Source: a virus (taxonomy: Duplodnaviria > Caudoviricetes). From it: 57,565 nt of DNA. Under the pieces are notes generated by a model, which saw only the letters and a program-made list of their open reading frames with translations, was not told the origin of the DNA and did not search any database. A program made the position numbers and the translations under genes. Positions 1,826 through 56,774 of this stretch are shown in pieces; position 1 is the stretch's first letter; every line of letters begins with the position of its first letter. The stretch lies in the IMG/VR virus record IMGVR_UViG_3300045170_000116, positions 1 through 57,565 of that record; one strand, written 5' to 3'.

Positions 1826-2459
1826 CGCGCGGCCGCTGGAATGCCTTCGCTGCCATCCACGCAACGAACGCGCAGACGACGATCACCAGGGCGATCCCGA
1901 GGGCGAGTTGCACCGGACCATTGCCCTGCGCTATCGGCGCCGCAGCGCCAATGGCGGTGCCTGCAGCGGGCAAGATCACCTCGGGCTTCCTGATGAGGTC
2001 GGTGATGGTTTCCGGCTTGGGCTCGGTCTGGAAGGTCGGCGTGGCGACATTCTTCTTGGGGAAGTCGGAGCCATCGTTCCACCGGCGCGCAGGCCCAGTG
2101 TCGATGTGCATGAAGTTCGACTTCGGATAGTGCCCGAATCCGGTGAAGCCGACCGAACGGGCTGCCCTCTCGAACTCCCAAGGATCCTGATTGGTCATGA
2201 CCACGTCGAACGCTTTGCCGAGACGGTGCTGGCTGTTCGTGGCGCCGCCGACTGCCTTGTTGTGGGCCGCCGATCGATATGCGCTCGTAATGAGCAGCGG
2301 CTTGCCGAGGACGGTCCGAAGCTTCTGCAGCTTGTCCATGCTGGCTTCATCGATCAGAAGCTCGCCCTCGCGCTTGCTGGCCAGTTCCTGCGGGGTGAAA
2401 TTCGGCCAGCGCCAATCGCCCAGTGGGAAGTCCCGCCAGGTCTTGTAGACCTTGCTCAT
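1818..2459 (-). CDS. Endolysin, peptidase M15 (YcbK-like) with C-terminal TM
   Basis: SAYRS, SQHRLGKAFD and FMHID zinc motifs; hydrophobic C-terminus. Confidence 0.88.
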   Translation of the reverse strand: MSKVYKTWRDFPLGDWRWPNFTPQELASKREGELLIDEASMDKLQKLRTVLGKPLLITSAYRSAAHNKAVGGATNSQHRLGKAFDVVMTNQDPWEFERAARSVGFTGFGHYPKSNFMHIDTGPARRWNDGSDFPKKNVATPTFQTEPKPETITDLIRKPEVILPAAGTAIGAAAPIAQGNGPVQLALGIALVIVVCAFVAWMAAKAFQRPRDV

Positions 2460-2586
2460 GGTGAGCTCCTATCGATGTTGGAAAAGAAAAGAGCCCCGCT
2501 CGCAGCGGGGCCTATTTGGCAGTATTCGGCCTAAAGCCTTCCATCTGCGGCTAGCACGTCCTACCTTGGTGGCAGGAGGAACGACC

Positions 2587-2817
2587 ATGGAACGAGAATC
2601 TCAGATTCTGACGACCGAGGTGGAGTTCGAGGGCGAAAGCTACTCAGCAACCTATTATGTCGAGCACAACATCATCCACGCCCATATCGGGGGCCGGCTC
2701 ATGTCTACCCCTGTTGCCCATGTGCCTGCTGAAAGAACGGTGCAAGCGCTCCTGCAGGGCCACCTTCTTCAGAGCCAGCGGAAACGCAACCAGCGGATTG
2801 ACTGGAACCAGCTCTAA
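2587..2817 (+). CDS. Small hypothetical protein (moron)
   Basis: AGGAGG RBS, 76 aa, followed by hairpin GCGGGCTG/CAGCCCGC. Confidence 0.7.
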   Translation: MERESQILTTEVEFEGESYSATYYVEHNIIHAHIGGRLMSTPVAHVPAERTVQALLQGHLLQSQRKRNQRIDWNQL

Positions 2818-2878
2818 CGTTGTGAAAATGCGGGCTGCAAGCCAGCCCGCGAAAACCCAAATCGTGATCCTCATCGAG

Positions 2879-2903
2879 GGAACCAGCCAAACCATCACCC
2901 GTT
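2879..2903 (+). promoter_or_regulatory. sigma-EcfG (sigT/RpoE2)-type promoter 1
   Basis: GGAAC-N16-CGTT. Confidence 0.75.
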
Positions 2904-2907
2904 CGGG

Positions 2908-3055
2908 CTATGAGTGCTTGGTTCTGGTTCCTATGCTCTGCTGCTCCGAGCACTCGACCTCGCCTCTTGGCAGGTTGTCCCCTCAGAGCCTGTTTTCGCT
3001 GGCTGAACTATCAGGCTCTGCTCACTTGGCCCCGGTTGATTGACCGGGGCTTTTT
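2908..3055 (+). ncRNA. Putative sRNA 1 (~145 nt)
   Basis: Hairpins GAGTGCTTGG/CCGAGCACTC and CAGAGCCTG/CAGGCTCTG, terminator GCCCCGGT/ACCGGGGC+T5. Confidence 0.62.
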
Positions 3056-3063
3056 CGTGCGTG

Positions 3064-3089
3064 GGAACCTTTTTACTCGCTCATGCATT
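3064..3089 (+). promoter_or_regulatory. sigma-EcfG-type promoter 2
   Basis: GGAAC-N17-CATT. Confidence 0.62.
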
Positions 3090-3094
3090 TGTGA

Positions 3095-3211
3095 GCCCGA
3101 ATGCCTGGGGTGGGTCTTGGGGCTCTGGGCATTCACTTGTCTGTCCACACGGCGCCATCACATTCCAGGATGGAGCTGAACACTGCCCTGGCTCTGCCGG
3201 GGCCTTTTTTT
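3095..3211 (+). ncRNA. Putative sRNA 2 (~115 nt)
   Basis: 5' hairpin GAATGCC/GGCATTC, terminator GCCCTGGC/GCCGGGGC+T7. Confidence 0.58.
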
Positions 3212-3230
3212 GGCAGCATTTGAGCTATCG

Positions 3231-3255
3231 GGAACCATAGCTGCGGTTAGACGTT
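3231..3255 (+). promoter_or_regulatory. sigma-EcfG-type promoter 3
   Basis: GGAAC-N16-CGTT. Confidence 0.75.
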
Positions 3256-3259
3256 CGCC

Positions 3260-3340
3260 CCCTGTCGAACGGGCCCGCTCCCCTGGTATTCCGCCAGAGG
3301 GCCCCAGACATTGGCCCCGGAGCATGAACCGGGGCCTTTT
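3260..3340 (+). ncRNA. Putative sRNA 3 (~80 nt)
   Basis: Hairpin GGGCCC..CTGG/CCAG..GGGCCC, terminator GGCCCCGG/CCGGGGCC+T4. Confidence 0.6.
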
Positions 3341-3596
3341 CCTTGCCAATTGACACTTTGCCAGCCCGACCATTTGTCGCCCGAGCGTCTGGTGCGGGGT
3401 GCGGGAGGCCCGCGCGTGTGTGCGGCCATCGCGCTTTGCCGTGATATCGGGAGTCTCACCCGCGAACATCTTTGATTAGTCAAGTTGAAAACTTGATCGA
3501 ACTCGCGAGGGCCTCAACTTAGGATCATTTACTCTTGGAGCCAGAGAATAGTATCCACGCAGCCGGCCCGCAAATCTAGGGATCGGAGACGCCCCC

Positions 3597-3791
3597 TTGC
3601 GTGTATCTTTGAATAACCCGCCGAAGATTACCGGAGTTGAAGAAATTTCATTTCCCGCAAAAATAGCGGAAACAGAAATTATCTTGGAGATGACAAGATT
3701 TGATGCAGAGCAGCTTGCAGAAGCACTGGTTCGCCACTTGGAGGCAACCTTGTTACTAGGCGCACTCATCTCATCAGAACCGACGCTATAA
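3597..3791 (+). CDS. Small hypothetical protein, paralog A
   Basis: TTG start after GGAG; aligns with 4141-4329 (NPPKIT...EMxRxDAEQLAEALxRH). Confidence 0.75.
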   Translation: MRVSLNNPPKITGVEEISFPAKIAETEIILEMTRFDAEQLAEALVRHLEATLLLGALISSEPTL

Positions 3792-3952
3792 ACAATCTGG
3801 TTCCGTCACATTCGGTCACTGGCGCCGGAGCATGAACCCGCTGCTGGTCCTGGACGCTTCCGCGAAGCCGCCGCGTATCCCAATAGAGGAACGAAGGGCG
3901 GCTTTTTCTTTGCCTGATTGCAGTTGAGGCACGATGCACCTATGTTCGCTCC

Positions 3953-4052
3953 CGGCTCGCGCACACGCGGGCTGGGGCGTGGAAACCCCGCACAGAGCGG
4001 CCTGGACCGGCCGTATTAAGTCGTCTCTCAATTAGTCGGGGAGGCGCGTTTT
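3953..4052 (+). ncRNA. C4/CI-like antisense RNA
   Basis: TTGCAG-N17-TATGTT promoter, multi-hairpin RNA with GGGCGTGGAAACCC arm, complementary sites at 4060-4113. Confidence 0.55.
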
Positions 4053-4140
4053 GGCGTATGTCCAGGCCGTAAGGCTAAAGGCCCGCGCGAACCCACTCTG
4101 TGCGGTTTTTCCAACTCCCCGACGCGATCGGAGAGCACGC

Positions 4141-4329
4141 ATGCGCATAGCTTTGACCAACCCGCCCAAGATCACCGACGACGGCGACATTTCGATCCCC
4201 GCCTCCGTTGATGGAAAGAACGATCAAATCGAGATGTCCCGCCACGATGCCGAGCAGTTGGCCGAGGCACTGCTTCGGCATTTTGCCAACGATGACAAAA
4301 TCTCGGGCGGATCAAACGGCGCCACGTAG
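4141..4329 (+). CDS. Small hypothetical protein, paralog B
   Basis: ATG after GATCGGAGA; paralog of 3597-3791. Confidence 0.75.
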   Translation: MRIALTNPPKITDDGDISIPASVDGKNDQIEMSRHDAEQLAEALLRHFANDDKISGGSNGAT

Positions 4330-5025
4330 CGGCGGCCCCTTGGCGATGCGCGGCCCGGTGAACTGCTGATACGCACCCCAGCAGCGATGAAACCCCATGT
4401 AGTGAAGGTCGGGGCCGCAGAGATGCACGGTGTCGAAAGGGCGAAGGCTGTCGGCAGGCGCAAAGAACATATCGGCATGGTTGGCTGCCGTGGACTCGAG
4501 TGCGCCATTTAGGCTCGCCTGTGTTCCAACCAGCCCTTGGATGATGATTGGGGCGTCGGCGGCGAGAAGGCCATCCTCCCGAAAGCCCGCTATGGCGCTG
4601 AGGAACCCTGCTTCATATGCCGATGGGTTTGAGCCTAGAAGCGCATCCCCGTTGTTCCAGAGCAGGAAGTCGGCAGGCGGCGCACCCGAGGCCACATAGG
4701 CACTTTTGACCTTGACGTATCGCGAGCCCGACGGCGGCTGCATGTCGGCGATCACCAGTGAACTTTGCGCGACCACCACCAGACGCACGGCCTCCCCGAT
4801 TTCACGCGCGAGACGGTCACAGAACCACGCCGCGGAATTGTTGCCGCCGCTGGCCCGCCAAGGGGCGCTGCCTGCGGCAGGCGATGCAATCCAAGCAGTC
4901 CCATCTGCCCCGCCGTCGTTCACATTGTTCCAGACTTGAACGAGGGGCGAGAGGGTCGCAAGGCTGGGACCGCCCACCCCTTCTCCGGCCATATTTGAAC
5001 CGCCAACGGCAAGCCCGTACTTCAT
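4312..5025 (-). CDS. SGNH/sialate O-acetylesterase (SASA/CE6)-like protein
   Basis: GGSNMAG (GQSN-like) N-terminal motif and DTVH (DxxH) motif; coupled to tail fibre gene. Confidence 0.7.
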   Translation of the reverse strand: MKYGLAVGGSNMAGEGVGGPSLATLSPLVQVWNNVNDGGADGTAWIASPAAGSAPWRASGGNNSAAWFCDRLAREIGEAVRLVVVAQSSLVIADMQPPSGSRYVKVKSAYVASGAPPADFLLWNNGDALLGSNPSAYEAGFLSAIAGFREDGLLAADAPIIIQGLVGTQASLNGALESTAANHADMFFAPADSLRPFDTVHLCGPDLHYMGFHRCWGAYQQFTGPRIAKGPPLRGAV

Positions 5026-6908
5026 CAGAAATTCTCCGAGACTATAGCAAGACCAGGAGCGCCGGCAGCACCATTGCGGTGCGTAGCGTCCGTCGAGACC
5101 GGTCCGCCCGCACCAGAGCCATAACCCTTGCCGGGATAGCCATCTCCGCCGCCAATGGTTCGTCCGCCAGCGCCTAGGCGCGAATTGCCGCCAGCATTTG
5201 CAGAGAAATAGGTCGTGCCGGAGAGCCGGAGGCCGCGTTGCGAATTCTGTCCGGGCACGATCAAATCGCCCACGCCTGTGTCTGCCCCGTCGTTCTGGTT
5301 GGACGAGGTGACAGAAGTGCCCGCGGTGCAGATGCCGGTGACCGTGCCGCCAATTCCCCCCGCGGCTTCGCAATACCCGCCGATGGACGTTGTCCCGCCG
5401 TTTCCACCGGCCGTGGGGGAAGCAGCGCCGACTCCCGCCAACCCGGCCGCACCGATCGTGACGGGACAGGACACGAAGTCGAGCGTGCCGCCGCTGACAT
5501 AGGCGCCGAAGCTCGTCGTATTGACGCCACTGAGTTGGAAGGTGTTCGTGGTTGCGCCGGCAACGGTATAGGTATTTCCGTTCAGGGAGGTCATCCCGAC
5601 GACCCCAGCGATTTTGACAACCGTGCCGTTCTTGAAGCCATGGCCATTGCTGGTCACGACGCCAGGGTTCGCCTGCGAAATGCCGCTGATTGACCTCAGC
5701 GAGAAATCGAGATGCTTGTGGGCCTCGGCGCCAGCCGATCCAGCATTCCCCATGCCGACACTTGCTGCCGCTCCAGAACAACCAGAGCTGCCGCCACCGG
5801 GCCCCTGCGTGACAAGATCGACCGACTTCGCGCCAGGCGTTCGGGTGTAAATTCCGCTGCCGGTGAAATAGAGGGTCCGCGCAGAGCCGATGACGGGGTC
5901 GACGCTGATGACAGGCGACGTGGGAACGGAGAGGTCAATCTGGACGCCGGTGCCGGCGACCAGGTCGAGCGGCTGCGCGTCAGCAGAGATGACGGGGTTG
6001 GCAGGGTCCGTGTTGTCGATGGAGATACCGTCGCCCTCAACCAAGCTAACAATTGTCCCGGCGCCGTCATTGCCCTTTTGCGCCAGCAAGGCCCAATAGG
6101 CATTGCTTGTGGTTGGTAGCGTTGGCGGAGCGTTGCCAGTGGTCGGCTGGAGCGCGATCCAGGATGAGCCGTTTTCGCGGGCAACGTCGCCCTCGGCGTA
6201 TGACGTTACGCCACTGTACGCACCTTTGAACGAGAAGCCCTCGCCGCGGAAGTCGACAGCATCGCCGATGGTGCCGGTCCAGGTGCCGTCCGCCTTGAGG
6301 TACTGCCCGACATTGTCTGTGGGAGGCACCCCCTCACCGCCAACATAGCCCGCCAGCTTTATGACCCTGCGAGCGCCATCGGCTTCGGCCACAAGCTGCG
6401 GCGACCATCCCTTCTGTCCTGTGTCGCCCTTGAACTCGACAGGTCCGATCCATGCGCCATATGCGCCGCTTTGCTTGGCCCAGATCACGCCATCGTCTTT
6501 GACGAGGACGCGATAGCCGGCGCGGAGTGGATTGGCAGGGCTTTCGAGCGCCAGTCGAGATGCATCATCTGCGACGATAATGTCGTACCAAGCCTTCACA
6601 TCGCCAAGCTGCTCAAGAACCTTGCGGCTCTGCGCCGTCGAGCGCTCGATGATGCTCACATAACGAACTTCATAGGACTCTTCAGCGGCAGCGGCGCCGG
6701 GCCATGGATAGGCGAGAACGATCTGGCCGTCTGCGTTGACGCTTTCGACACGCTGGGGAGGCACGAGCGGTTGCGACGGAAGGAAGAACAAGTCGTCGCC
6801 CCAGACGTTGTCAGTCCAAGTTGCGCCGGTTGGTGTGACGACAGTGCCACCGGCAGCGACAGACGCCCTTCCGACCGCATAGCGGCCAGGTAGAAGATTA
6901 TCGGTCAT
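5025..6908 (-). CDS. Tail fibre/receptor-binding protein
   Basis: KGDTGQKG collagen-like stretch, CBM5/12-like YxxGDxVxxxGSSWIAL motif, Gly-rich C-terminus with FCCH-like insert. Confidence 0.8.
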   Translation of the reverse strand: MTDNLLPGRYAVGRASVAAGGTVVTPTGATWTDNVWGDDLFFLPSQPLVPPQRVESVNADGQIVLAYPWPGAAAAEESYEVRYVSIIERSTAQSRKVLEQLGDVKAWYDIIVADDASRLALESPANPLRAGYRVLVKDDGVIWAKQSGAYGAWIGPVEFKGDTGQKGWSPQLVAEADGARRVIKLAGYVGGEGVPPTDNVGQYLKADGTWTGTIGDAVDFRGEGFSFKGAYSGVTSYAEGDVARENGSSWIALQPTTGNAPPTLPTTSNAYWALLAQKGNDGAGTIVSLVEGDGISIDNTDPANPVISADAQPLDLVAGTGVQIDLSVPTSPVISVDPVIGSARTLYFTGSGIYTRTPGAKSVDLVTQGPGGGSSGCSGAAASVGMGNAGSAGAEAHKHLDFSLRSISGISQANPGVVTSNGHGFKNGTVVKIAGVVGMTSLNGNTYTVAGATTNTFQLSGVNTTSFGAYVSGGTLDFVSCPVTIGAAGLAGVGAASPTAGGNGGTTSIGGYCEAAGGIGGTVTGICTAGTSVTSSNQNDGADTGVGDLIVPGQNSQRGLRLSGTTYFSANAGGNSRLGAGGRTIGGGDGYPGKGYGSGAGGPVSTDATHRNGAAGAPGLAIVSENF

Positions 6909-6921
6909 GATGTTTCCGTGT

Positions 6922-7773
6922 TTAGCTTCGCCGCCCGAACCGTCCACGGACGGTCAGTGCATAGGTGGAAGAATAGTTGGTAGGATCGTCATAGGCGGCC
7001 GCTGCAGCCCCGCCATAGCGCCGGGCATTGCCAAAACCAGCGACCTCCCCAGGCCCGAAGAGACCCGAGCCAGTAGTGGCCTCAGACTTGTTGTAGGGAC
7101 TCTCATCGCGCCAAAAGACCGGCAGGGCCGCAACACCCGATGCTGAGACATTTTCGACGCCACTTCGGGTGTGGTTTGGCGGAATTGATGTGTTGGACAC
7201 GGCGACGGGAACATTGCCCTGCTGTCCGAAATTTCCAGCCGCAGGGCCGACTGAGTGCTCCAGGATAGCCACCAGGCGTCCGCCTGTCGTTTCGATCACC
7301 TCGTCGCTACCGGCGATATCGATGGTCAGCGCGCGGGAAAAGCCCATCACCTGCTCGACCATCATTGACCCAGCGATCTGGACGCCATCTGCCAAAACAG
7401 GAAACGGCGAGATCGTTTGGCCAAGCCAGGTATGGCTTGGTGAGGCCGTACGGACTAGTGAGATCCGACCAATAAAAAGATCAGCCCCTTTTGGCGCGGC
7501 GCCCAGGTCTACGGTCTGGGTCCATTCCTGCGGTCGAGCCCCCACGGCCGTTCGGCAAGCAACGCCTATATGATAGTTATCACCTGGCGCGCGAGTGGTC
7601 GTGTACTGCCAGGTATACAGCTGGTTCTTGGCAGCATCCGGGAAAGTGATGCTGGCGCTGAAGACCCTAGCCGCAGTCAGAAACTGCAGCAAAGTGCCCC
7701 CGGTAGTAGCAACGCGACGGTCACCGTAGCGGATGACCATCTGCCCCCCCTCGTAAGAGAAGCCCCCGCTCAT
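6922..7773 (-). CDS. Minor tail protein
   Basis: Position and overlap in tail operon. Confidence 0.65.
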   Translation of the reverse strand: MSGGFSYEGGQMVIRYGDRRVATTGGTLLQFLTAARVFSASITFPDAAKNQLYTWQYTTTRAPGDNYHIGVACRTAVGARPQEWTQTVDLGAAPKGADLFIGRISLVRTASPSHTWLGQTISPFPVLADGVQIAGSMMVEQVMGFSRALTIDIAGSDEVIETTGGRLVAILEHSVGPAAGNFGQQGNVPVAVSNTSIPPNHTRSGVENVSASGVAALPVFWRDESPYNKSEATTGSGLFGPGEVAGFGNARRYGGAAAAAYDDPTNYSSTYALTVRGRFGRRS

Positions 7774-36353: not shown

Positions 36354-36429
36354 TGGTTGCGGGAGCAGGAATTGAACCTGCGACCTTCGGCTTATGAGAC
36401 CGGCGAGCTACCGCTGCTCCACCAACGCA
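36354..36429 (-). tRNA. tRNA-Met(CAT), initiator-like, degenerate
   Basis: GGTGGAGCAGCGGTAGCTCG..CTCATAA..GCAGGTTCAATTCCTGC..ACCA; mismatches in acceptor and anticodon stems. Confidence 0.75.
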
Positions 36430-44708: not shown

Positions 44709-45448
44709 GCCGACACCAGGCCATCGCCGGCCATTTTCAGGCAGGAATTGCAGTGAGCCTTCCCACCAGACGAACGGCAGGCTTCAGGGCTCTGGCACAA
44801 GGGGCGCAGCTTCTTGACGCCCTCGGCTCGCGAAAGAACGTTGGATGCCGGAGCTGGGGTCGAACCAGCGTTGACGGCGTCAAAGGCCGCTGTCCTGCCA
44901 TTAGACGATCCGGCATTGTCCTGAAGGGGCTCGACATTGTCGACGCCCCTGCCCTCGCTTGCATCTGCCGAGAGAGTTTCGTTCGCCGTTTCCGGCTGAA
45001 TAGGTTGACGTTCTTCGATGCCCTCCACAACGTCAGGAGAGGGAGTGACGGTCGCTGTAACGACCCGCATCTGCGCAGGCTGAGGGGCAACCTGCGGTTG
45101 GGTAATAGGTTCGGAAACAGCCTCGACGCGACCAGCAAAGAGCGGCGCAGAATGGCCGGCGGAGCCGCGGCGCAAAGTGCGATTCATTGCCTCTTCGTGC
45201 GAGGTCTGCATATCGAGCGCGGTCATGTAGAGCTCGAGCAGAGCTTCCTGCTCCATGCGCTCGTTGGCGTCCTGCTTGCGGATCGTCACAATCTTCCGCA
45301 GGATTTTCGTGTCGAAGCCGTTGCCCTTGGCTTCGGCGTAGATTTCCTTGATGTCAGCCGCGATGGCGGCTTTCTCTTCCTCCATTCTCTCGATGCGTTC
45401 GATGAAGGCGCGGAGCTGGTCCTGGGCGACGGAATCTTCAACGGCCAT
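44705..45448 (-). CDS. gapR: GapR/DUF2312 protein with long C-terminal extension and Cys4 motif
   Basis: [45 protein letters not shown]. Confidence 0.88.
44842..44915 (-). tRNA. tRNA-Gln(TTG) nested within the GapR CDS
   Basis: TGCCGGA-TC-GTC TAATGGCAG GAC-A-GCGGC CTTTGAC GCCGT-CAAC-GCTGG TTCGACC CCAGC-TCCGGCA-T-CCA, 74 nt. Confidence 0.85.
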
Positions 45449-56415: not shown

Positions 56416-56500
56416 TGGTGGAGGGGACTGGATTCGAACCAGTGTACGCTAAGCGGTCAGATTTACAGTCTGATGGATTTAACCACTCTCCCACCCCTCC
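56416..56500 (-). tRNA. tRNA-Tyr(GTA), probable attB
   Basis: 85-nt cloverleaf with long variable arm, CTGTAAA loop, CCA end facing integrase. Confidence 0.97.
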
Positions 56501-56700: not shown

Positions 56701-56774
56701 GCGGGTATAGCTCAATGGTAGAGCAGCAGCCTTCCAAGCTGAATACGCGGGTTCGATTCCCGCTACCCGCTCCA
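56701..56774 (+). tRNA. tRNA-Gly(TCC)
   Basis: GCGGGTA..CTTCCAA..GGTTCGATTCC..TACCCGC-T-CCA. Confidence 0.97.

Follow-up and report, generated by a model that had tools for sequence, protein, structure and literature searches.

The DNA analysed here, called the window below, is the complete IMG/VR provirus record IMGVR_UViG_3300045170_000116 (57,565 bases), from a virus of the Caudoviricetes. A short island of the plus strand, at about 2450-4330, is flanked by late genes of the minus strand, and within this island an RNA element stands immediately ahead of ORF 4141, which encodes a small protein. The whole unit (3918-4140) consists of a promoter, a 5' hairpin and a pseudoknotted domain of about 155 nt (3972-4126) that is joined directly to the ribosome site of the ORF; the folded RNA is about 155-195 bases long. 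The parts of this unit and the genes around it are listed in Table 1, with the helix names used throughout.

Table 1. Features of the RNA element, of ORF 4141 and of the neighbouring genes in the window
Feature	Position	Strand	Basis or remark
Promoter-like TTGCAG-N17-TATGTT	3918-3946	+	TTGCAG 3918-3923, TATGTT 3941-3946
HP0, 5'-terminal hairpin	3947-3973	+	fold; stem 3955-3961/3966-3972
S1 hairpin, GGGG-CGTGGAAA-CCCC	3974-3977/3986-3989	+	covariation
PK, S1 loop TGGAAA with 3' stretch	3980-3985 with 4108-4113	+	covariation
H1, 5' strand CCGCACAGAG	3988-3997 with 4096-4105	+	covariation
P2a hairpin, CGGCC/GGCCG	3998-4002/4009-4013	+	compensatory change in 2 of 5 pairs, 93% paired
P5 hairpin, CGTCTCTC with GGGAGGCG	4022-4029 with 4039-4046	+	folds; rivals P6 for the G-rich strand
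P6, GTCGGGGAG (Shine-Dalgarno-like) with CTCCCCGAC	4035-4043 with 4115-4123	+	covariation
P3	4044-4048 and 4053-4055 with 4081-4088	+	encloses the junction, P4 and TAAAG
Junction GTATGTCCA and TAAAG	4056-4064 and 4076-4080	+	inside P3; invariant stretches
P4, GNRA hairpin GCC-GTAA-GGC	4066-4075	+	compensatory change in 3 of 3 pairs (46 sequences)
P7 hairpin, AACC/GGTT	4090-4093/4104-4107	+	excludes H1 and PK
Ribosome site TCGGAGAG (4127-4134) and ATG of ORF 4141	4127-4143	+	sequence
ORF 4141, 62 aa	4141-4329	+	small protein without known function
Tandem paralogue of ORF 4141, 64 aa	3597-3791	+	without RNA element
M15 endolysin	1818-2459	minus	late gene beside the island
SASA-like esterase	~4312-5100	minus	late gene beside the island
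Tail-fibre-like protein	5025-6947	minus	late gene beside the island

The RNA 3947-4160 is predicted to fold with a minimum free energy (MFE) of -102.2 kcal/mol (z = -3.88), and none of 200 dinucleotide shuffles gave a value as low. The original prediction, drawn from the letters of the window, had described a promoter followed by a multi-hairpin RNA whose downstream part carries exact complements of upstream segments. All of these features are present, namely the boxes at 3918-3946, the stems of HP0, S1 and P2a, the GNRA hairpin and the complementary segments 3998-4007/4060-4069 (10 of 10 positions), 3988-3997/4096-4105 and 3966-3972/4081-4087, together with a C-rich strand at 4115-4123 that can pair either with 4035-4043 (9 of 9) or with the ribosome site of ORF 4141. 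Regarding the promoter-like boxes, the nearest relative of the element (L005) has TTGCGC-N17-TATGTT at the equivalent position relative to its 5' hairpin, and CTTGCG/CTTTCG-N17-TAnnnT-like boxes were seen by eye at an equal distance in other relatives; a scan of the window with the sigma-70 consensus did not list 3918-3946. Hairpins of differing sequence occupy the position of HP0 in relatives, again as judged by eye and uncounted.

A distant BLAST search with 3300-4335 gave no match among phage records, and in three Shinella plasmids the match was confined to window 3973-4122, which holds the RNA but no part of the ORF; the plasmid DNA concerned is unannotated. The shared-core pattern of the element was found in one further viral contig and, when 185,579 species genomes were scanned, at 24 loci. 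From 23 copies of the window's subfamily we built a covariance model, R1, which confirmed 23 of these 24 loci, the other, in Streptomyces (L015), being discarded as a chance match; R1 matched the window once, at 3972-4126 with 112 bits. The carriers belong to many orders of Alphaproteobacteria and include a metagenome-assembled genome (MAG) of Aquimonas (Gammaproteobacteria) and MAGs of Verrucomicrobiota (Akkermansiaceae, Luteolibacter). For the order of the Devosia carrier (G003), R1 detected the element in 19 of 141 genomes, up to seven times per genome; the corresponding counts were 4 of 121 genomes for the order of the Aquimonas carrier (G001) and 2 of 141 for the phylum of the Akkermansiaceae carrier (G004). 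Single genomes hold four and eight copies. Such a patchy, multi-copy distribution is as expected of mobile DNA. One genome (G216) carries seven copies (L070 and L080-L083 among them), between which homology starts about 85 nt 5' of the element in four of the five further copies compared and continues for over 1.2 kb on its 3' side in a mosaic of rearrangements. The unit is a module that occurs in multiple copies on mobile DNA.

Conservation of the fold was measured on two alignments. The first, made with MAFFT from 23 sequences, was not fitted to any structure; 96.7% of its cells are paired, against at most 48.9% in slid-partner controls, and it contains 19 compensatory pairs compared to a shuffled mean of 10.1, none of 500 shuffles being as good. 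The second, of 46 sequences, combines the window's relatives with true loci of sRNA-Xcc1, the Rfam family RF02221 (14 RF02221-type loci). Here 95.9% of the cells are paired, compensatory change occurs in 33 of 40 pairs, and once more none of 500 shuffles was as good. Covariation among homologues, one of the points on which the original prediction was to be judged, is present. In this alignment, G-U pairs are common on the plus strand and A-C pairs are rare, which fits an RNA read from that strand. We regard it as almost certain that the element is a conserved structured RNA homologous to sRNA-Xcc1.

Covariation extends to most of the individual helices. Compensatory change in the 46 sequences was seen in all four pairs of S1 (98.4% paired), in all eight pairs of P3, in 7 of the 10 pairs of P6 (96.9% paired) and in 4 of the 5 pairs of P7 (98.2% paired; 4 of 4 on the MAFFT alignment). 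PK, although outside the search model, has compensatory change in 5 of 5 counted pairs with 93.9% paired, and in 5 of 6 pairs on the MAFFT alignment. H1 forms an unbroken helix of 8-12 bp in 17 of 23 relatives, with sequences that differ from one to the next: the 46-sequence set contains 45 distinct 5' strands, and at least nine pairs form in 39 of the 46 copies compared to 6% of 2070 partner swaps. Invariant sequence is found in the junctions. ATGTCCA is present in 31 of the 46 aligned copies, all of the window's subfamily, and AAAGG is invariant across the 23-sequence alignment; in that alignment the UUUU bulge of P3 (4049-4052) is a 4-nt insertion peculiar to the window.

Two side observations concern this central part of the RNA. 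Most relatives show complementarity between the P2a loop and the 5-6 nt that directly precede P5, in sequences that vary (window 4003-4029); this suggests a small H-type pseudoknot, seen by eye, uncounted and weak in the window. Moreover, a Shine-Dalgarno-like GGGGAGG stands 13 nt (about 9 nt in most relatives) 5' of the invariant AUG of AUGUCCA, and the two may form a decoy start site. A conserved leader peptide starting at this AUG (4058) was considered and rejected, as the frame runs for 4 codons in the window, for 6 codons in 10 of the 31 copies and, in the remaining 20, for 11-66 codons or without a stop within the stretch read.

The relation to sRNA-Xcc1 lies below the thresholds of Rfam. 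No Rfam family reached its gathering score on the element, and with lax filters and E values up to 10 sRNA-Xcc1 was the sole Rfam match there: RF02221 aligned with 4035-4131 at 19 bits (E 3.9), short of the gathering score of 53, as did the best relative (L029, 29.7 bits). For the reverse comparison we turned to the order of the Aquimonas carrier, where 10 of 121 genomes have RF02221, seven of them above the cut-off, and took 20 RF02221 loci from it. R1, which represents only the window's subfamily, matched the RF02221 site with filters off in 18 of these 20 loci at E<=0.01 and in all 20 at E<=0.1, and the alignments cover the whole model, including the 5' S1 hairpin. All 14 RF02221-type loci possess an S1-like hairpin, complementary in its loop to the segment ahead of the C-rich strand, and all 14 have an H1 of at least 8 pairs. 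As in the RF02221 consensus, an outer helix (P6) with a G-rich 5' strand and a C-rich 3' strand surrounds the P3/P4 stem-hairpin and P7, and both RNAs lie on mobile DNA just 5' of a co-oriented small gene, often in several copies per genome. By contrast, the junctions read GUAUGUCCA/UAAAG in the window and AAUACAACA/GAAUA in sRNA-Xcc1. The window element is a divergent member of the sRNA-Xcc1 superfamily.

The comparison also changes the extent of the family. The sRNA-Xcc1 of Xanthomonas campestris has been mapped as a discrete RNA of 88 nt, seen on Northern blots as one band at about 100 nt, and has been described as trans-acting (PMC2996969). Both this RNA and the Rfam model start at the outer helix, whereas the conserved fold reaches about 65-100 nt further 5'; this extension has a hairpin that pairs, through its loop and flank, with the 3' part. 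What Rfam models, and what was mapped as the 88-nt RNA, is thus no more than the 3' part of a fold that is conserved over about 155-180 nt. Two preprints place sRNA-Xcc1 upstream of symE in the same orientation and in integron cassettes (bioRxiv 10.1101/2025.06.18.660453), and upstream of a gene for an ORF6N-domain protein in APSE phages (bioRxiv 10.1101/2020.03.17.996009). In the sRNA-Xcc1 literature searched, we found no description of the 5' part or of a cis role.

The original prediction had placed the element among the C4/CI-type antisense RNAs. C4 of P1/P7, CI of P4 and IsrK are RNAs of 70-80 nt, processed by RNase P, which are found in immunity or anti-repressor operons upstream of icd/ant-type genes and of which short segments pair with target boxes overlapping the ribosome site of the downstream gene. 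The window element resembles them in being a phage-borne RNA in the leader of a gene that it possibly controls, in carrying an upstream complement to sites near the ribosome site and in its possible release by processing. It differs from them in lying between tail-fibre and lysis genes rather than in an immunity or anti-repressor operon, and its complementary segments are helices of one conserved intramolecular structure. Since its fold is different and no C4, isrK or related Rfam model matched, either at the gathering score over the whole window or at E<=10 with lax filters over 3000-4700, identity with C4, P4 CI or IsrK is rejected. Regarding the four complementarities, 3988/4096 (H1) and 4035/4115 (P6) are conserved and covary, whereas 3998/4060 and 3966/4081 are not conserved. 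The 3998/4060 helix is confined to the window and L005 (8 of its 10 pairs in the latter), 4057-4064 being elsewhere a junction and 4066-4075 a hairpin, and 4081-4088 pairs locally to form P3. The conserved boxes, which had been taken for antisense-target pairs, are helices of one intramolecular fold common to sRNA-Xcc1-type RNAs.

The same observations bear on the mode of action first proposed, in which a short 5' RNA (about 3947-4052), terminated at a hairpin followed by UUUU or cut out, would act between molecules on the leader boxes in the manner of P1 c4 or P4 CI. The hairpin at issue, P5, is real and common to relatives. The U-run at 4049-4052 that follows it (hairpin 4022-4046) would suit a terminator, but it occurs in the window only, being missing from the 22 other aligned relatives, and the terminator scan does not call it. 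The 5' part is indeed complementary to 4096-4113 and 4115-4123; strands of one molecule, however, pair intramolecularly first, two of the four boxes are unconserved, no C4-type model matches, and contigs from RNA libraries continue through 4052. A last point in favour comes from Xylella fastidiosa: in PMC12189769 (Table 4), one genome has matches to sRNA-Xcc1, isrK and C4 within about 400 nt on one strand, possibly a physical link between two RNA families, and another has five sRNA-Xcc1 copies in a repeat of 380-385 nt. On this evidence, we regard a short intermolecular antisense RNA as very improbable.

The conserved helices fall into two sets that exclude each other. PK and H1 (fold X) use nucleotides 3986-3989 and 4104-4108, which are also needed by S1 and P7 (fold Y), and P5 and P6 are exclusive because they have the G-rich strand in common. 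The covarying helices include members of both folds, H1 and PK of X and S1, P7 and P6 of Y. In several copies, a conserved mismatch of H1 falls on a nucleotide that is paired in P7, and the 5' strand of P7 changes together with the strands of H1, as expected if both folds matter. Over 3947-4150, fold X is the MFE structure at -101.8 kcal/mol; fold Y, with S1, P7 and P6 enforced, has -85.0, a cost of about 17, and enforcing P6 alone gives -94.4 kcal/mol. An RNA starting at 4033 is predicted to fold into the P6-closed form. It should be noted that CTCCCCGA, at 4115-4122, is able to pair with the ribosome site just ahead of the ATG at 4141, and in the MFE structure of the window the C-rich strand 4115-4123 does pair with 4127-4135.

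The support that covariation gives to both exclusive folds leads to the reading of the element as a cis-acting two-state switch of ORF 4141, towards which we lean. We infer from the arrangement of the helices that it would act on translation and be off by default. In fold X, the loop of S1 and the strand that follows (3980-3997) would form a long helix with 4096-4113, the G-rich segment 4035-4046 would be held in P5, and the free C-rich strand 4115-4122 would mask the Shine-Dalgarno sequence (4127-4135), so that the gene would be off. Formation of S1, P7 and the outer helix P6 in fold Y, as in sRNA-Xcc1, would remove the C-rich strand from the ribosome site, and the gene would be on. A signal would select between the two folds, the candidates being 5' processing, a protein, another RNA or a ligand.

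Several observations weigh against this cis-acting switch. The MFE structure of the window contains the lineage-specific helix 3998-4007/4060-4069 in place of the conserved P3 and P4. Pairing of the C-rich strand with the region before the start codon appears in the MFE structure of 22 of 41 copies, compared to 46% of trials with a shuffled 9-mer; being no commoner than with shuffled 9-mers, the masking rests on composition and not on a specific sequence. Similarly, local pairing of the G-rich strand of the P5 type, found in 37 of 46 copies against 70% of shuffles, is compositional only. A strong terminator separates the element from the ORF in some relatives, as in L070, where it stands ahead of an ORF of 73 aa, and the genes downstream are too diverse to suggest a trigger or a ligand. 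The contigs from RNA libraries may be DNA carry-over; the flanks 3200-3650 and 4500-4800 are covered as well. Lastly, sRNA-Xcc1 accumulates as a short RNA in Xanthomonas campestris (PMC2996969).

Some of these points speak for a different reading, in which the element is a stand-alone trans-acting small RNA (sRNA) like the published sRNA-Xcc1, with its own promoter and an end near 4125 that is set by processing or termination, the ORF being a passenger expressed by read-through or separately. The discrete 88-nt RNA with mapped ends fits this reading, as do the Xylella relatives, which are abundant, discrete RNAs (PMC12189769), the canonical terminator that follows the element directly in some relatives and the control-level frequency of the anti-Shine-Dalgarno pairing. 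In the window, however, the family match ends just 14 nt short of the ATG, and the terminator scan finds no terminator there. A co-oriented ORF follows closely in nearly all copies, a candidate beginning at most 100 nt downstream in 41 of 46. Covariation links the two halves of the fold in the RF02221-type loci as well, as described above for H1; since the 5' half is outside the 88-nt RNA, a longer RNA has to be present at some point. Nor is a conserved single-stranded seed evident, the invariant stretches being in the junctions. A stand-alone trans-acting sRNA is rather unlikely, yet it is a serious rival to the switch.

The cis linkage assumed by the two-state switch draws support from the relatives: besides the co-oriented ORFs, their C-rich strand is followed by a ribosome site with nothing in between or by an intervening hairpin and U-run. 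The repeated unit of G216, which starts upstream of the element, and the placement of sRNA-Xcc1 ahead of symE and of the ORF6N-domain gene also favour it. The linkage is visible in the window itself. The sequence GATCGGAGA at 4126-4134 is an exact repeat of 3581-3589, which lies ahead of the paralogue of ORF 4141, and the R1 match ends (4126) exactly where homology to the paralogue's ribosome site starts. This coincidence indicates that the element was fused exactly onto a pre-existing ribosome site. As the element is present only at the second duplicate and the homology resumes at the ribosome site, one of the duplicates must have gained or lost it as a module. There is no second copy of the element before the 3597 paralogue, R1 having no other matches in the window at E<=10, and pairing between the paralogue's leader (3360-3600) and the 5' part of the element is at chance level (pairing as good was seen with 27 of 300 shuffles and with 22 of 233 segments elsewhere in the window).

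Regarding expression, part of 3850-4400 is represented in 24 runs of RNA libraries from ant metagenomes, and contigs from four of them cover the locus. Two contigs, 3821-4210 and 3966-4252, bridge the leader and the ORF. The contigs, which show neither ends nor strand, are compatible with a leader-ORF transcript and do not prove it.

The distribution on mobile DNA raises the alternative that the structure acts as DNA, perhaps as a signal that mobile elements use in single-stranded form for recombination or replication. The element is multi-copy and patchy on plasmids, on prophages and in integron-like contexts, and integron cassettes carry sRNA-Xcc1 according to the preprint already mentioned (bioRxiv 10.1101/2025.06.18.660453). 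On the other hand, no integron attC-like core was seen by eye at the ends of the inverted repeat, and the frequent G-U pairs of the plus strand, such as 25 at one pair of P7 and 10 in P6, would be A-C mismatches on the other strand. The promoter-like box upstream and the ribosome site downstream point the same way, as does L004, a locus on a plasmid of Shinella sumterensis where a group II intron with ltrA (reverse transcriptase) is inserted in the element at about 653-2451. This intron lies exactly between the 3' strand of S1 and H1, the uninterrupted allele being L003, and its sense orientation fits a transcribed site. A function at the DNA level is consequently extremely improbable.

As an RNA in the leader of a gene, the element can be compared with two further kinds of regulator. 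Like riboswitches and other leader platforms, it has two exclusive folds, with a strand common to the closing helix and to an anti-Shine-Dalgarno or terminator element, and invariant junctions within a covarying core are followed by translational or terminator-type platforms among relatives. Unlike riboswitches, it precedes no functionally coherent set of genes: among 29 downstream ORFs scanned, one belongs to HTH families, one to SymE_toxin and 27 to no Pfam family, and the 29 share no alignment (mean column identity 10%). Many of the small downstream proteins have a hydrophobic segment by simple hydropathy. Type I toxin mRNAs have 5' leaders that need processing before translation. One relative stands ahead of a SymE-type toxin gene, which recalls such leaders; unlike them, no antisense partner was seen here, and most downstream genes encode unknown small proteins. 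A bolder proposal, which we consider unlikely, is that the sRNA-Xcc1 superfamily would constitute a new class of pseudoknotted sensor leader that licenses accessory genes of mobile elements on a cellular signal (ligand, protein or ribosome), with the junction GUAUGUCCA/UAAAG as the sensing site and the 88-nt sRNA as the processed or terminated product of one state.

The product of ORF 4141 had been called unknown and not recognisable as Icd or Ant, and it has no recognised family here either. Pfam and PHROG give no family for it or for its paralogue, to which it is related by 27 identities in 48 aligned residues (E 2e-19). A word-index search of 5.8 billion proteins returned its own cluster alone, a viral scan gave no relatives, and a profile search of 1.84 billion protein representatives yielded just the paralogue, a fragment and one repeat protein of 871 aa (P0004). 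The latter matches the small-ORF profile in eight stretches (E 8e-10), either through true kinship of its beta-rich N-terminal half or as a repeat artefact. ORF 4141 is without a hydrophobic segment by simple hydropathy. Its predicted model has a beta3-alpha arrangement (pLDDT 79) with no match in the PDB at E<=0.001, and the ESM Atlas offered sub-threshold leads only (DUF6324, DUF6967).

Both paralogous small ORFs are contained in a tandem duplication of about 510-545 nt, in which 3309-3343 resembles 3817-3851. Further 5' in the island, the plus strand carries three terminator-like hairpins with U-runs (3028-3051, 3185-3204 and 3313-3336) at a spacing of about 130-155 nt; no convincing ORF lies between them, and the terminator scan counted five such sites against 1.6 expected. 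These hairpins may represent genes for small RNAs or what is left of other modules. The provirus record also holds four tRNA genes (36358-36428, 44845-44915, 56419-56500 and 56701-56771), and the last two, near the right end, may mark the integration site.

Taken together, these results bear on an RNA to which automatic annotation assigns copies in many genomes and which is discussed as an sRNA that acts in trans and is linked to virulence. The Rfam model of this RNA covers just the 3' half of a larger conserved fold, and a divergent subfamily below the Rfam threshold is present on prophages and plasmids in Alphaproteobacteria, in an Aquimonas MAG and in MAGs of Verrucomicrobiota. A new or extended covariance model would recover the missed copies and so improve annotation. 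Both exclusive folds have been kept by compensatory change, and a vaguely defined sRNA thereby becomes a testable switch ahead of dozens of unknown accessory genes on mobile elements. The family is widespread and poorly understood, and its member in this provirus probably switches a small prophage gene on or off.

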